From Rhodospirillales bacterium (lineage in GTDB: Bacteria > Pseudomonadota > Alphaproteobacteria > UBA828): a stretch of 42,470 nucleotides of DNA. Positions 2,064 to 36,143 of this stretch are shown here, piece after piece. How positions within the stretch are numbered: position 1 is the first letter of the stretch; each line of letters starts with the position of its first letter. The translations under genes and the position numbers were made by a program. Location of the stretch: NCBI GenBank assembly GCA_028820995.1, contig JAPPHR010000111.1, forward strand, positions 1 through 42,470, in the 5' to 3' direction. A model generated the notes under the pieces. That model was not told where the DNA came from and ran no database searches. It saw nothing but the letters and a program-made list of their open reading frames with translations.

Positions 2064-3647
2064 TCACATACGGAAAACGCCGAATCGCGTCTCTTCCGGC
2101 TCCCGGTTCATGGCAGCGGATATACCCACCGCCAGAACCCTTCGGGTGTCGAGGGGATCGATCACGCCGTCGTCCCAAAGGCGCGCGGTGCTGTAGTAGA
2201 CGTTACCCTCCTGTTTATATCTCTCGATCGTGGGACGAATGAAGTCCTTTTGTTCCTCATCGGTCATGTCGCGTCCCTCGCTCCGCATTCTATCCATCTT
2301 GACGCGTAGGAGCACCTGGGCTGCCTGGTCTCCGCCCATGACGGAGATTTTTGCGTTGGGCCACATCCAGAGCTGGCGCGGCCGATAGGCGCGGCCGCAC
2401 ATGGCATAGTTGCCAGCGCCGTAAGAACCCCCGATGATCACTGTGAACTTGGGCACGGCCGCGTTGGCCACGGCATTCACCATCTTTGCACCGTCTTTGG
2501 TGATGCCGCGATGCTCGAACTGCTTTCCTACCATGAAACCCGGAACGTTCTGGAGAAAGACGATGGGGACACCCCTCTGGCAGCACAACGAGACGAAGTG
2601 TGTCCCCTTGAAAGCGCTTTCCGAAAAAAGCACGCCGTTATTGGCCAGGATTCCCACGGGATAGCCTTCGATCCTGGCGAATCCGCAGACGAGCGTCCTG
2701 CCGTAGAGCGCCTTGAACTCCTGAAATTCGCTCCGATCGACGATACGCAGGATGACTTCGCGCACGCCGAAGCTTCGCCGGGTGTCCGTCGGAATGATTT
2801 CATAAAGTTCGGACGGGTCTTCGCGCGGAGCTTCGGGGTCGACGGCTCGAAGCCCATGCTTCTCAGGGCGCGGGAGAGACAGAAAGATGTCGCGCACGAC
2901 CCGCAACGCGTCGGCATCGTCCTTGGCATAGTGGTCGGCAACTCCGGAAATCCGGCAGTGAACGTCCGCCCCTCCGAGTTCCTCTGCAGTGACATCCCGG
3001 CCCGTTGCCGCCTTCACGAGCGGCGGTCCGCCCAGAAATATCGTGCCTTGGTTCTTGACGATGACGGCTTCGTCGCTCATCGCGGGGACGTAGGCGCCAC
3101 CGGCCGTACAGGAGCCCAGAACTGCAGCCACTTGGTAGATGCCCGCGGCTGACATGCGAGCCTGGTTATAGAAGATCGCGCCGAAGTGATCCCGATCCGG
3201 AAACACCTCCGCCTGCAGGGGGAGGAACGCGCCGCCTGAATCCACCAGATACACGCACGGGAGGTGGTTTTCGAACGCAACCTCCTGCGCCCGCAGATGC
3301 TTCTTTACGGTCATGGGGAAATAGGTTCCGCCCTTGACCGTGGCGTCGTTGGCCGCGACGACGACCTCGCGTCCGTGAATCTGTCCAATTCCGGTGACGA
3401 TTCCAGCCGACGGCGCGCTACCGTCGTACATCCCGTCGGCAGCCAAAGCGCCCAGTTCCAGAAACTCCGCTCCAGGATCGAACAGGTGCTCAATGCGTTC
3501 GCGGACGAACATACGGCCGCTCTTCCGGTGACGCTCGATGCGCTCGACTCCTCCCCCCTGCCGGACGTGCTCCAGTTTCATATGGAGTTCGGCCACCAGC
3601 GTTTCCATAGCCCGCCGGTTGGTTTCCAGATGGGGGTTGGTTTTCAT
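2064..3647 (-). CDS. liuB: Methylcrotonyl-CoA carboxylase beta (carboxyltransferase) subunit
   Basis: 527-aa intact ORF with acyl-CoA carboxyltransferase domains throughout ([22 protein letters not shown]..., [50 protein letters not shown]). It lies between the ivd remnant and the hydratase. Confidence 0.9.
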
Positions 3648-3664
3648 AACTGGCGCTGGATTTC

Positions 3665-4340
3665 TCAGGCGATCACGATCCGCTGGATCTTACTCGTTCC
3701 TTCGCCGATCGTGCACTGCTTCACGTCTCTGTAGAATTTCTCAGCGGGGAAGTTCTTGACATAGCCGTAGCTGCCCATTATCTGCACGCATTCGTTAGCG
3801 GCGCGGACAGCGGCCTCGCTGGCAAAAAGCTTCGCCAGCGACAACTCCATAATTGTCTTTTTTACCTGATCCTTGAGTAGCCGAAGTTCATTGAAAGCCA
3901 TTATAGCCAGGAGTTTGCATTGTTTCGGCGGGCCGGGCAGCGCGCCGCCGCCGTAGAATCCCAATCATGTCCGGATCGTGCCGTCCGTCCAGCCATCCGG
4001 CACGTAGCCGTCGACAAAGACTAGCCTTCCAGTTACCAGGGAGTTCATGGCGTTCGACATCGCCAGACCCAGCGTGGTGGCCAGCAGGAATCCGCGCCGC
4101 TCCAACCCCAGAATCGTCAATGGCCGGTTCAGTGCACGAAAGCTGCTTCCAGGCGACGAACCGGCCTGCCGAAGGGCTATATTGCGGTGCCTGAGATCGA
4201 CGTCCGGGTGCCGGGCGCGGCCGAGGTCGAAGCGTGGGTGCACAGTCCCGTGGTGGGCCAGTTGATCCAGATGCGCCTCGGTCGGAGGATAGTCCTGACG
4301 CAAACTCGGCCCCAGCCCCGTTCCACAAGTATATTTTTTC
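3665..4340 (-). pseudogene. liuA: Isovaleryl-CoA / acyl-CoA dehydrogenase remnant, 5'-truncated and frameshifted
   Basis: The C-terminal 85 codons or so are well preserved ([60 protein letters not shown]). Upstream ACAD-like pieces are spread over other frames (NIALRQAGSSPGSSFRALNRPLTILGLERRGFLLATTLGLAMSNA; ILVERGWG). Roughly 140-150 N-terminal codons are missing, because the + strand NusG-like gene starts at 4436. Confidence 0.7.
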
Positions 4341-4435
4341 GCGCTTGCAATAAGCTCATGTGTTCTGATACCATCACCAACTATTTTTGCCGGTGTGGCA
4401 GACTGCTGGGAGGGCGAAGCTGTAACAGCGGGTTT
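4321..4435 (+). promoter_or_regulatory. AT-rich junction and likely promoter region upstream of the NusG paralog
   Basis: There is a local drop in GC (ttccacaagtatattttttcgcgcttgcaataagctcatgtgttctgataccatcaccaactatttttgcc). A TTGCAA hexamer lies at 4345..4350 and a TATATT hexamer at 4330..4335, but no convincingly spaced -35/-10 pair is present. Confidence 0.25.
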
Positions 4436-4960
4436 ATGGACCTTTGGCGTACGGAAAACTGGTTTGCGGTGTACACCAAGGCGTCTCAGGAGGAGTTGGC
4501 CGCGCGGAACATAGCGCGGCTCGGAATCGACGTCTTCGTCCCGAAAAGACTCGGCAAGAAGCGTGTCTGGAGGGTTTTCCACCCTATACTCAAGCCGCTG
4601 TTTCCCCGGTACGTGTTCGCCCGTTTTCGCCCGGATGTCCACCTGCATTCCATCAGGTACGCGCGGGGCGTTAGCTACGTGGTCCTTTTCGGAGATCTAC
4701 CGCTGCCCGTCGATGAGCGCATCATTCACGAGATTCAATCGAGGGTCAATTCCGAGGGATACGTCAGGTTGGATTCCGCGGCGTTCCGCAAAGGAGATCG
4801 CGTGCGGGTCGCGGAAGGTACGTTTCGTGGACTGACAGGGATGTTCGAGAGGGAGCTCAACAATCAGGATCGGGTGGTGCTGCTGCTCGATACGATCGAG
4901 TTTCAAGCGAGAGTCCTGGTCGAGAAACAGGGTTTCGAGCTGGCGCGAGCAGCGGTTTGA
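4436..4960 (+). CDS. Specialised NusG-family transcription antitermination factor (RfaH/LoaP/TaA/UpxY-like NGN+KOW paralog)
   Basis: 174 aa. NGN domain: WFAVYTKASQEELAARNIARLGIDVFVPK...PLFPRYVFARF. KOW domain: FRKGDRVRVAEGTFRGLTGMFERELNNQDRVVLLLD. It is not in a secE-nusG-rplK context. The in-frame ATG at 4358 would add a Cys-rich extension that looks unlikely. Confidence 0.85.
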   Translation: MDLWRTENWFAVYTKASQEELAARNIARLGIDVFVPKRLGKKRVWRVFHPILKPLFPRYVFARFRPDVHLHSIRYARGVSYVVLFGDLPLPVDERIIHEIQSRVNSEGYVRLDSAAFRKGDRVRVAEGTFRGLTGMFERELNNQDRVVLLLDTIEFQARVLVEKQGFELARAAV

Positions 4961-5020
4961 TCGTGCCACTGTCGATCGTGAGACGGAGAAGAACCGACGC
5001 TGCCGGCCCATGGGTCGAAA

Positions 5021-5032
5021 TGGCGGTAGCGC
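5021..5032 (+). promoter_or_regulatory. ops-like element GGCGGTAGCGCG in the leader downstream of the NusG paralog
   Basis: The full 8-nt ops core GGCGGTAG is present, and 11 of 12 positions match E. coli ops GGCGGTAGCGTG. It lies on the coding (non-template) strand, 61 nt after the NusG-paralog stop and 134 nt before the next gene. It is embedded in the palindrome GGCGGtagcgcgCCGCC. By eye this is the only GGCGGTAG in the window. Confidence 0.5.
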
Positions 5033-5165
5033 GCCGCCTACCCAGCTCGGGTCGAGCGTTCCGAGGCAAGCATCAGTAAGCGCATCGACCTGGACAGGCG
5101 CCCCTGTGGACCGGCAGTACGGGCCACTCCTTGTCGTACGGTGAGAGTTCCGGTCAGAGAGTGAA

Positions 5166-5984
5166 GTGACAGTGAACCTTCGCGACGTCTTCGGCACCTC
5201 AAAGCCGATCATCGGGATGATCAACCTCCTGCCGTTGCAGACGTATCCGAACTATCCCGGCATGGATTGCGTGCTGGAGGCGGCTCTGACCGACGCTCGG
5301 GCGCTGATCGAAGGGGGAATCGACGGGCTCCTGGTGGAGAACACCTTCAGTTTTCCTATCGATTCTGTGATCGAGCCCCATCTCGGCGCCGCGATGGCGA
5401 TCTGTACACACGAAGTGGTGAAAGCGTCGAGTGTTCCAGTGGGCGTTGTGGTGAACATGGAACCGGGGGACAGAACATCGCTGGGCGTGGCGGTCGCGGC
5501 CGGAGCGCGCTTCATTCGTTCGGTCAGCTTCAACGAGGCCGTGCTGACCTCGTTCGGCGTCTTTCAGGGCCTGCCGGGCGAGATGACGCGCTATCGCGCG
5601 CGTTTGGGGGCCTCCGATATTGCGGTGCTGGCCGACATTCAAGTGAAGTACACCACCATGATGGCCGAGCGCTCGCTCGAGCTTTCCGCTCAAGGGGCCG
5701 CCATGTCGGGCGTCGATGCGATCGTGGTGACCGGTCAGGTCACGGGTAACGCGCCGCCGGTGGAGACGGCCGCGCGTGCGAAGAACGCGGTCCGCAAGAC
5801 ACCGGTCATCATCGGCAGCGGCTTGGACATCGACAACGCTTCGGAATTGCTCTCCGTGGCCGACGGAGCCATCGTCGGCTCGTATTTCAAGAAAGACGGA
5901 GTCTACGCCAACCCCGTGGATCTCGAGAAGGTGCGACACGTGGCGGAAACGGCGCGCCGCCTCGAAAAAGCAGAGCGCGCATAA
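5166..5984 (+). CDS. BtpA/SgcQ-family TIM-barrel protein
   Basis: 272 aa. KPIIGMINLLPLQTYPNYPG...ALIEGGIDGLLVENTFSFP matches the BtpA-family N-terminal pattern. The start is GTG at 5166 (alternative GTG at 5172). Confidence 0.75.
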   Translation: MTVNLRDVFGTSKPIIGMINLLPLQTYPNYPGMDCVLEAALTDARALIEGGIDGLLVENTFSFPIDSVIEPHLGAAMAICTHEVVKASSVPVGVVVNMEPGDRTSLGVAVAAGARFIRSVSFNEAVLTSFGVFQGLPGEMTRYRARLGASDIAVLADIQVKYTTMMAERSLELSAQGAAMSGVDAIVVTGQVTGNAPPVETAARAKNAVRKTPVIIGSGLDIDNASELLSVADGAIVGSYFKKDGVYANPVDLEKVRHVAETARRLEKAERA

Positions 5985-5987
5985 GAT

Positions 5988-6683
5988 ATGCCGAAGACCT
6001 TGCCCGCCAGTCCGGATCCCGGCCGCCCTTACATCGTGATCATGTCCGCCGTCACACTCGACGGCAAGTTGACCGTCGGCCGCGGCGTCACGAGCGGCTC
6101 GCTCGGCGCGTTCGTCACGTACGAGGTCGTCGAGTTCCTGCACGACATGCGCGCTTCGGTCGATGCCGTGATGGTCGGCGGAAATACGATCGTGATCGAC
6201 AATCCGAGCCTGACGGTTCGGGCCGTCGACGGACGGAGCCCCGTGCGCGTCATTGTCGACCCCGAGGGCGCGGTTCCGCTGGAATCCAAGGTGTTTCATG
6301 ACAAGCAGGCGCCGACCATCGTAGCGGTCGCGAGCGAGACCGCCGACGAACGGAGAGCGGCGCTCCGAGATCTGGGCGTGAAGGTGGTGGTCGCTGGCGA
6401 CGGCAAGTTCGTGAATGTCGAGGTCTTGGTCAGAGCGCTGGCGAGGGAGGGAATCCGGTCCCTGCTGATCGAAGGGGGCGCGACGCTGAACTGGTTGACG
6501 ATTTCATCCGGCTTGGTGGACGAGTTGCAGATCATCAAACTCCCGATCGTGATCGGGGATCGGGGCTCACCGGGCTTTGCCGAGACTCCGGGAGGTGTCG
6601 AGGCGGCTCCCGCGAAGCTGGAGTGTACGCGGACGGAACGGCTGGGAAACTGCATGGTCCTGTATTGCCGGCGCACAGAATAG
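5988..6683 (+). CDS. RibD C-terminal-domain reductase (stand-alone diaminohydroxyphosphoribosylaminopyrimidine reductase-like / DHFR-fold)
   Basis: 231 aa. YIVIMSAVTLDGKLT, DAVMVGGNTIVIDNPSLTVR and SLLIEGGATLNWL are typical of RibD_C. It starts 3 nt after the BtpA stop. Confidence 0.8.
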   Translation: MPKTLPASPDPGRPYIVIMSAVTLDGKLTVGRGVTSGSLGAFVTYEVVEFLHDMRASVDAVMVGGNTIVIDNPSLTVRAVDGRSPVRVIVDPEGAVPLESKVFHDKQAPTIVAVASETADERRAALRDLGVKVVVAGDGKFVNVEVLVRALAREGIRSLLIEGGATLNWLTISSGLVDELQIIKLPIVIGDRGSPGFAETPGGVEAAPAKLECTRTERLGNCMVLYCRRTE

Positions 6684-6712
6684 GAGGGCTTCGAGGGAGC
6701 AGAGGAAAGACA

Positions 6713-7291
6713 ATGGCCTTCACCCGCATGGATCAGCTCACGGCCGGCATGGCCGACATTGACGTAATCGGCGATGCGCTCGCGAAGCGTCAGGCGGACA
6801 TGCCCGAGGTGATCCGGGGAATGCTCCGACAGCTCGCCTCGCATCAGGACGGGTTTCCGGTCGATCAGCTCGAACATTCCCTCCAGACCGCGACGCGCGC
6901 GGAGCGAGCCGGCGCGTCGGAAGAAATGATCGTCGCTTCCCTTTGCCACGACATCGGCAAAGCCGTTTCCGAGGTCAACCATGCGGCGATCAGCGCGGAG
7001 ATCCTGCGGCCGTTCGCTTCCACGGAAACGTACGAAATCATCCGCACGCACCAGGATTTTCAAGGGAAATACGTATATGCCTTCATGGGAAAGGATCCGG
7101 ACGCTCGTGAGCGATACGCGGACCGGCCTTGGTATCGATTGGCGTGCCAGTTCGCGGACGCTTGGGATCAAGCCGCTTTCGACCCGAATTACGACAGCTA
7201 TTCGCTGGAGCATTTCGGCCCCATGATCGATCGGGTTTTCGCGTCACCCAGACGTGATGTCCAGTCGTGGAGCGATTGCAATCGATTCTGA
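6713..7291 (+). CDS. HD-domain metal-dependent protein (COG4341-like, the family that contains PhnZ/TmpB-type diiron oxygenases)
   Basis: 192 aa. H...HD motif: LEHSLQTATRAERAGASEEMIVASLCHDIGK. C-terminal motif: FADAWDQAAFDPNYDSYSLEHF. RBS agaggaaaga lies upstream of the ATG at 6713. Confidence 0.7.
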   Translation: MAFTRMDQLTAGMADIDVIGDALAKRQADMPEVIRGMLRQLASHQDGFPVDQLEHSLQTATRAERAGASEEMIVASLCHDIGKAVSEVNHAAISAEILRPFASTETYEIIRTHQDFQGKYVYAFMGKDPDARERYADRPWYRLACQFADAWDQAAFDPNYDSYSLEHFGPMIDRVFASPRRDVQSWSDCNRF

Positions 7292-7329
7292 CGATCCAAC
7301 TGGGTGGCGACAGAGGAAGGAGACAACAC

Positions 7330-10655: not shown

Positions 10656-10843
10656 GGCGGCCGATTCACAGCGGCTGCGTTGTTCTATCGTGCGTTCAGG
10701 AGCATTCCTGGCTCGCTGTCAAAAAACTCGCGGTACGTGATCCAATCGAAGCGTGAGAGAATCCTGCAACTGGCAATGTCCGCTTCGAGTTCGCCCAATC
10801 GTCGGAGAGCGGGCGTCGCGAACAAGGTCCCGGAGGTGTCTGC

Positions 10844-35762: not shown

Positions 35763-36143
35763 GTGGAGTTCCGGGTCTGGATGTCGTGTTCGTGGGGCTG
35801 GGTAATCTGTCCCAGTCGATGGGTTGCATGGAGCAATTCGAAGACCCTGGATTGCTCAGCAACGTTCGCAATGTGTTGACCCGGATCGAAGACAGTGGCA
35901 TAATTGCAACGGTGAACTCGGAATCCGTAGAAGGGGCGAAACGCTGGATTACTTAAGGGGTGAAGATACTGAGCTGAGCCGTTGACATTTCGGTCATGAC
36001 CTGGGCGCTGGAGCGCATCGCGTCAAGCTTCGGTTCACTCGGAAAGCAGGCGGCGGAAAACGTGACGTTCCAGTTCCGCCGCGGATTTTCCGGTATCAAT
36101 TCTGAGTACACGAGGTCACAGTAAAGCTGGAAGGGAGACAACA

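Follow-up and report, generated by a model that had tools for sequence, protein, structure and literature searches.

A candidate ops-type element conserved downstream of an RfaH-like NusG paralog gene in Acidobacteriota

We analyzed a 42,470-base stretch of contig JAPPHR010000111.1 (hereafter, the window), in which a gene for an RfaH-like paralog of NusG is followed by a leader containing a sequence very similar to ops, the element recognized by Escherichia coli RfaH, and then by a long run of genes in the same orientation. RfaH and ops are the best understood case of a factor reading the non-template strand of paused polymerase. The window is about 60% GC, its DNA is found in sponge metagenomes, and its relatives place it in the phylum Acidobacteriota, order Bryobacterales, in agreement with the original prediction, made from the sequence alone, that it comes from a GC-rich lineage distant from Enterobacteria. 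The locus is laid out as follows.

4436-4960, + strand: RfaH-like NusG paralog of 174 amino acids with NGN and KOW domains (Pfam, HMMER, NCBIfam)
5022-5033, + strand: ops-type element GGCGGTAGCGCG, non-template (sense) strand, co-oriented with the flanking genes
5166-5984, + strand: BtpA/SgcQ family protein, with a GGAGAG-like Shine-Dalgarno sequence ahead
5166-42277, + strand: co-directional array of about 27 genes (more than 37 kb), the presumed target

The original prediction placed the motif at 5021-5032. The motif is present, but lies one base to the right, at 5022-5033, its core GGCGGTAG occupying 5022-5029 of the + (non-template) strand; GGCGGTAGCGCG is located 61 nucleotides (nt) past the paralog stop and 133 nt ahead of the BtpA/SgcQ gene. 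The 205-nt leader proved to be real, extending from the TGA at 4958-4960 to the BtpA/SgcQ GTG at 5166 (an alternative start, GTG 5172, is the one called in ortholog L001). Compared with the E. coli reference, the waaQ leader ops GGCGGTAGCGTG read from NC_000913.3 (MG1655), where it is followed by CTTTTTT, the window sequence is identical at 11 of 12 positions, T11 to C being the sole change, and scanning of both strands confirmed that GGCGGTAG occurs only once in the window. A palindrome noted around the motif, GGCGG-TAGCGCG-CCGCC, exists at 5022-5038 (+) but is window-specific and is not conserved in orthologs. The argument that such an occurrence can hardly be a coincidence turned out to be weak at the level of the window, since shuffled sequences contain 0.91 copies of GGCGGTAG per window and at least one copy in 61 of 100 shuffles; 12-mer matches with up to two mismatches are also at the chance level, with no excess. 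For the leader alone, sense strand only, the 8-mer expectation is 0.0027, a post-hoc figure. Because one GGCGGTAG per window is about what chance provides, the real support for the element is comparative.

Contigs carrying orthologous loci, with paralogs at 55-98% protein identity from Bryobacterales, Terriglobia, and Acidobacteriota metagenome-assembled genomes (MAGs), were fetched and their leaders aligned. In every ortholog, GGCGGTAG occurs once, in the sense orientation, 45-61 nt past the paralog stop. In the 10 aligned leaders, GGCGGTAGC is invariant and the flanks diverge on both sides, the behavior expected of a conserved ops core; no conserved block was found in the 200 nt upstream of the paralog beyond the closest relatives. 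The exact E. coli 12-mer is present at three loci (L001, L002, and L014). A second sample came from scanning metagenome contigs for a protein pattern, without reference to the DNA motif, and comprised 11 relatives at 25-50% identity. Four of them (L019, L020, L022, and L024; 50%, 46%, 40%, and 37% identity to the window paralog, respectively) carry GGCGGTAGC(C/T)TG 33-146 nt past the stop. Two further sites belong to L030/L031 (54%) and to L032 (40%), the latter located 753 nt downstream of the paralog and about 140 nt ahead of an MbtH-like gene.

When 17 sites are compared, the only fully invariant letters are those of GGCGGTAG. C9, G12, and a pyrimidine (T or C) at position 11 each hold in all but one of the 17, and position 10 is unconstrained; TG occupies positions 11-12 in 11 of the 17 listed sites, and positions 1-9 are invariant in 10/10 aligned leaders and 16/17 sites overall. 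In 164 kb of dereplicated related loci, GGCGGTAGC occurs 13 times, at 12 leader sites and once inside a coding region; 12 of the 13 lie directly downstream of an RfaH-like gene, all on the sense strand. The binomial probability of such sites in at least 12 of 19 lineages by chance is ~2e-26 (first-order Markov model, 800-nt target). In pattern form, for genome scanning on both strands, the motif is GGCGGTAGCNYG; GGCGGCAGC is an ops variant.

The gene that comes after the leader varies. It encodes BtpA in most loci (L001, L002, L003, L006, L007, and L008 among them), an amidohydrolase in L004, a MaoC dehydratase in L009 and L030, and acetaldehyde-dehydrogenase-like or RmlA-like proteins at other ops-bearing loci. 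The paralog and ops are a modular unit, kept while the next gene changes. The surroundings of this unit also appear varied. Transposase-type genes (DUF772, Y1_Tnp) or an IclR-family regulator immediately precede the paralog, depending on the lineage (the upstream genes are at 3172-3903 in L003 and at 2339-2773 in L004, and are found in L004, L005, L009, L010, and L030); the window, L001, and L002 have a divergent carboxyltransferase/enoyl-CoA hydratase/HMG-lyase set instead. An acyl-CoA dehydrogenase remnant is located at 3647-3880 (-) of the window. It retains the C-terminal 78 residues, at 77% identity to an intact 381-amino-acid gene of L002, and the ~550 bp separating it from the paralog contain no recognisable gene; a comparable 85-amino-acid fragment is present in L001.

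Two observations concern individual sites. L019 has two ops-like sequences 75 nt apart, GGCGGTAGCCTG at 3529 and a weaker GGCGGTAGGGGG at 3604, ahead of an acetaldehyde-dehydrogenase-like gene. A T-rich stretch immediately follows ops in L019, L022, and L024, as it does in E. coli waaQ; the window and its close relatives are without it.

The protein encoded upstream of the element is RfaH-like rather than NusG-like, as judged from Protein Data Bank (PDB) and NCBIfam scores. Its NusG NGN domain is recognized by Pfam at residues 8-100 (E = 4.8e-14). In a phmmer search of the PDB, E. coli RfaH was matched with E = 1e-16 (64 bits) and NusG with 5e-6 and worse, the HMMER alignment pairing paralog residues 7-164 with RfaH residues 2-156. 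NCBIfam models rank in the order RfaH (TIGR01955, 99.6 bits), UpxY (76.8), LoaP (44.3), and NusG (34.1), each score being below the curated cutoff of its model (100 for UpxY, 125 for LoaP). In an AlphaFold model built with 121 homologs, the NGN domain has a predicted local distance difference test score (pLDDT) of 82-98, and Foldseek superposes it on RfaH with a root-mean-square deviation of 1.7-2.8 A; NusG was also matched. The C-terminal domain is modeled as beta strands with the 121-sequence alignment, at low confidence (pLDDT 42-67), and as a single long helix (residues 145-173) with a 7-sequence alignment, at pLDDT <40. Relatives of the paralog include proteins from two complete Bryobacterales MAG chromosomes, OZ241991.1 and OZ242366.1 (98% identity), and proteins of Terriglobia and Acidobacteriota MAGs (75-81%).

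In ops, the hairpin loop spans G4-A7 and exposes G5 and T6 to RfaH residues K10, H20, R23, and R73 (PMC5995543). Comparison of the NGN domains revealed that three of these four ops-contacting side chains are kept in the window paralog, as K15, R28, and R77 (E. coli K10, R23, and R73), as are the equivalents of G74 and V75. All five residues are kept in 9 of 10 aligned ops-bearing paralogs; K10, R23, and R73 occur together in 0/6 aligned paralogs lacking canonical ops. In a rough neighbor-joining tree, 9 of the 10 aligned ops-bearing paralogs make up one clade. The equivalent of E48 is K53, invariant in 7 orthologs, while R138 is kept as R146; with K at this position, the autoinhibitory E48-R138 salt bridge is absent.

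In a sister clade with H at K10 and T at R23, variant ops-like motifs (GGCGGCAGCCTG, GGCGGCAGCCCG, TGCGGCAGCCG, and TGCGGTAGTCTG) are found just upstream of the factor gene. Variant and canonical motifs are positioned at 3449 and 4854 in L032, ~3514 and ~4175 in L033, ~3470 in L034, and 3965 in L011. L032 also has the canonical GGCGGTAGCCTG, ahead of an MbtH/radical-SAM cluster, and the downstream motif of L033 is GGCGGTTGC. The presence of GGCGGCAGCC and GCGGTAGT upstream of the factor gene in clades with K10 to H and R23 to T changes may reflect co-variation of protein and DNA in the code for recruitment.

In E. coli, recruitment of RfaH, but not pausing, depends on bases C3, G4, G5, T6, A7, and G8, whereas T11 and G12 drive the pause, T11G being strongly defective (PMC5995543). 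The six bases of the recruitment set are invariant at 17/17 sites. Taken together with the pyrimidine-G pause positions and G1 G2, they form the same pattern as E. coli ops. An ops-type interpretation is supported by the invariant GGCGGTAGC, by the same 9-mer after distant paralogs, and by the RfaH-like protein, and we consider it likely, from these comparisons and by analogy with E. coli, that 5022-5033 functions as a site at which the polymerase pauses and the adjacent paralog is loaded. The pause is predicted at the 3' end of the element.

5032-5033, + strand: predicted pause, C11 forming the RNA 3' end and G12 being the next base to enter

By analogy, C11/G12 would be Y-1 G+1 of the consensus pause, and G1 G2 would be its G-11 G-10. 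The T11 to C change fits such an assignment, as it would keep the pyrimidine that the consensus pause requires; T and C alternate at this position among orthologs. The following course of events can be proposed. The polymerase would start near 4395, upstream of the paralog gene, transcribe that gene, enter the leader, and pause with C5032 at the RNA 3' end, G1 G2 serving as upstream and C11 G12 as active-site determinants. In the non-template bubble, G2-C9 and C3-G8 would close a small DNA hairpin presenting G5 and T6; the NGN domain of the paralog would read these two bases via K15, R28, and R77 and clamp onto the polymerase. The polymerase so modified would resist pausing and Rho-dependent polarity through the long array. 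In most lineages the site is 33-61 nt past the stop, so that the polymerase would be held near the releasing ribosome, favoring loading in cis. We infer pausing, hairpin formation, binding, antitermination, and the preference for cis from the layout of the locus and from what is established for E. coli RfaH.

Several observations speak against the interpretation as an ops-type loading site. In the window, position 11 is C, giving a pause dinucleotide of CG rather than TG. The paralog has N25 in place of H20 and L in place of Q24, the residue at H20 being N across the window group, and its scores are below the curated RfaH cutoffs (99.6 vs. 144.5 for TIGR01955, 80.6 vs. 124 for NF006534). L024 bears ops, but its paralog lacks both R23 and R73 (T at both) and groups in the tree with ops-less L023 and L026. 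Typical E. coli RfaH targets are foreign in composition, but the array, with an even GC content of ~60%, is not, and intrinsic-terminator-like sites across it are at shuffle level, not above chance. Finally, RNA contigs stop at 4982-5008 on the approach to ops and leave 5009-5863 uncovered, ops included; these are assembled contigs of low depth, which makes the absence uninformative.

Other explanations for the conserved sequence must be weighed against a loading site. The sequence is in the sense orientation and would hence be carried by RNA, so it could be an RNA-level element, a protein-binding or processing site in the nascent transcript like the LoaP hairpin or the RirA small RNA (sRNA). 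In E. coli, the waaQ ops is part of an annotated sRNA, rirA (L035 3167-3239; MG1655 3808166-3808238), and in the Bryobacterales-related group a local hairpin is possible.

5022-5035, + strand: GGCG/YGCC pairing of ops positions 1-4 with positions 11-14, in nearly all Bryobacterales-related leaders

C13 and C14 are conserved within that group, but neither they nor the pairing are present at the distant sites or in E. coli. RNAalifold analysis of 11 leaders revealed no compensatory change (covariation term +0.07), the fold of the leader is unexceptional (z = -1.17), and a cmscan search of 3600-5400 at E <= 1 gave no Rfam match, JUMPstart (RF01707) included. The conserved bases are, moreover, the ones from which the DNA hairpin loop of the RfaH:ops structure is built (PMC5995543). 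An RNA-level element is improbable on this evidence.

Conservation might also be due to translation of a leader peptide or to a re-initiation site, since the element is contained in a small open reading frame (ORF).

5010-5021, + strand: clade-specific block ATGGGTCGAAAT, immediately 5' of ops
5010-5144, + strand: small ORF of 44 amino acids (MGRNGGS...), its ATG 12 nt before ops G1, with no Shine-Dalgarno sequence

Within the block, ATGG..GA.A. is conserved in 11 leaders (the 54-98% identity group) and not in relatives at 37-50%. All 11 leaders of that group have this ATG at a constant 12 nt before ops; it occupies the same position in L001-L009, L014, L018, and L030. Some changes are synonymous (GGT/GGC, CGA/AGA), and in 9/11 leaders the ORF either stops within 32 nt of where the next gene starts or runs into that gene, as an overlap or an in-frame fusion, the fusions to BtpA being those of L002 and L014. 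A Shine-Dalgarno sequence is nonetheless lacking, the peptide is not conserved past 7 residues, and the frame shifts among close relatives. L019, L020, L022, L024, L032, and E. coli all have the ops core and no such ATG, and for this reason the ORF cannot account for conservation of the core. The distance of 23 nt between the ATG and the 3' end of the pause is below the spacers of published RfaH-coupled complexes; direct loading of a ribosome during the pause, with the ATG in its P site, was rejected as it would demand more than 23 nt by the same comparison. It is thus very unlikely that translation explains the element. In the Bryobacterales-related clade, the ATG and ORF may be an added layer, for example, a re-initiation site keeping ribosomes behind the polymerase.

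The element could also be a bare consensus pause, timing translation or folding, for example, that the paralog does not recognize. G1 G2 ... Y11 G12 fits the consensus pause, and ops-like sequences pause diverse polymerases (PMC7593976). Such a pause would not account for the core: G4-G8 are variable in the consensus pause and unneeded for pausing (PMC5995543), yet they are invariant at 17/17 sites, and the sites consistently adjoin an RfaH-like gene. The probability that the element is nothing but a pause is therefore very small.

The least credible alternative, a duplex operator or promoter of the downstream operon, such as a site for the IclR-type regulator or a sigma-54 promoter, can be practically dismissed: IclR-family genes do precede the paralog in L004, L005, L009, L010, and L030, and the block contains GG and GC dinucleotides, but the motif is non-palindromic and on the sense strand without exception, loci without a neighboring IclR gene (the window, L001, L002, and L003) conserve it just as well, and a consensus scan found no sigma-70-like site there. 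As read from the site sequences, the GG-to-GC spacing does not fit TGGCAC-N5-TTGC, and a sigma-54 promoter was rejected. From the paralog stop to the next gene, neither a sigma-70-like promoter nor an intrinsic terminator was detected.

Transcription of the locus was followed in 8 sponge or marine metatranscriptomes. Their assembled contigs match the paralog gene at 95-99% identity and span 4397-5008. The 5' ends of the contigs fall at 4397-4454, those at 4397 and 4403 adjoining an AT-rich stretch.

4330-4396, + strand: AT-rich promoter-like stretch, with putative elements TTGCAA at 4345-4350 and TATTTT at 4382-4387

This stretch fails the consensus scan and is conserved among close relatives only. 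The 3' ends are at 4891-5008; transcripts from the paralog gene extend at least 48 nt into the leader, to 14 nt short of ops. Parts of 5864-7300 are covered in 3/8 runs, and the paralog gene in 8/8. The paralog and early operon genes are expressed in situ. The coverage pattern could reflect a higher level of paralog mRNA, 3' ends near ops, or merely low depth.

The first product of the array, BtpA, is recognized by Pfam (E = 1.7e-61) and by NCBIfam TIGR00259 (203 bits vs. a cutoff of 153.4). Other genes encode a pyrimidine-reductase-like protein, an HD protein, and a 1113-amino-acid CarboxypepD_reg/OMP-barrel receptor; at least five amidohydrolases, two MFS transporters, an amidase, a Rieske oxygenase, and an amine oxidase; and an enolase-superfamily enzyme, two acyl-CoA ligases, a sugar kinase, dehydrogenases, and an aldolase. 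Judged by these predicted products, the array looks catabolic. A polymerase loaded at ops would presumably read all of it. Several intergenic gaps are of 250-540 nt, and these, together with a promoter-like site at 35876-35904, suggest more than one transcription unit. That site (+ strand, in the gap ahead of a BNR-repeat gene) is sigma-70-like at 10/12 positions and has an extended -10 TG; at 10657-10678 (+), 50 nt after the outer-membrane receptor gene, there is a GC-rich hairpin with a T-rich tail. Both may be internal signals of the 37-kb array. The overall counts are at the chance level, promoter-like sites across the array, too, being at shuffle level.

RfaH-like proteins are known from 23 phyla, Proteobacteria accounting for 95% of the proteins, and recruitment has been characterized for E. 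coli RfaH alone (PMC7593976). No paper connecting Acidobacteria with RfaH or ops was found in the literature searched. Beside RfaH-like genes in Acidobacteriota and other environmental lineages, the ops core does not vary, some sites being identical to that of E. coli at 12/12 positions; the distinguishing features here are the cis position, the change of E48 to K, and the catabolic cargo. The loci provide natural material for studying the age and transferability of the recruitment code, the residues that ops recognition requires (H20 is N here), and ops dependence without autoinhibition. RfaH-type control would be extended from envelope and virulence operons to large catabolic arrays in sponge symbionts. 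It is conceivable, if rather doubtful, that the paralog and ops together are a portable self-loading cassette, that is, a non-autoinhibited RfaH (K at E48, beta C-terminal domain) that loads in cis and yet needs ops recognition; the factor would be released ~45-70 nt behind a polymerase held at canonical ops on the same transcript. If so, ops recognition would be separable from autoinhibition, contrary to the current evolutionary model, in which both appeared together and late, and the ops code would be common to enterobacteria and Acidobacteriota, serving catabolic clusters in the latter.

The closest known system is that of E. coli RfaH and ops (waaQ, hly, tra, and kps). The 8-9-nt core is identical and lies on the non-template strand, a pyrimidine-G is present at positions 11-12 (TG in all validated E. 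coli ops targets), and the element is located in a leader ahead of a long operon. The partner protein has E. coli RfaH as its best PDB and hidden Markov model match and shares with it K10, R23, R73, G74, and V75. In contrast to E. coli, where rfaH is unlinked and monocistronic, the factor gene here is directly upstream of ops in the same orientation. The protein differs in having N for H20, L for Q24, and K for E48, and in scoring below the curated RfaH cutoff; E. coli targets have envelope, toxin, or conjugation functions, whereas the array here is catabolic-looking and not AT-rich, and the host phylum is Acidobacteriota. JUMPstart (RF01707), found in the 5' leaders of operons that depend on RfaH, includes ops. 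It is a 39-nt element with a conserved stem-loop, listed as gamma-proteobacterial (PMC2864571); the window gave no cmscan match to it, and the leader flanks are unrelated to those of the E. coli waaQ leader.

As an operon-resident NusG paralog heading a long cluster, the factor resembles UpxY of Bacteroides, LoaP of Firmicutes, and TaA of Myxococcus. It scores lower on the UpxY and LoaP models than on that of RfaH, below cutoff in both cases. LoaP relies on a hairpin in RNA, whereas the window leader gives no support for any RNA structure.

Two other groups are encoded in cis as well. PrfaH of IncX3 plasmids is co-transcribed with its target, and its recruitment takes place at an ops-like site within that transcription unit, although the site is upstream of the prfaH start codon, and here a canonical site comes after the factor gene; the key residues and target sequence of PrfaH differ from RfaH and ops (PMC11880322). 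The "monomorphic" RfaH homologs described in a 2026 preprint (PMC13015549) are likewise encoded in or beside a long operon, with a predicted beta C-terminal domain and without the E48-type determinant. According to the preprint, they lack several ops-binding residues and are ops-independent (PMC13015549), whereas the window paralog keeps three of four contact side chains and is accompanied by a strictly conserved canonical ops.

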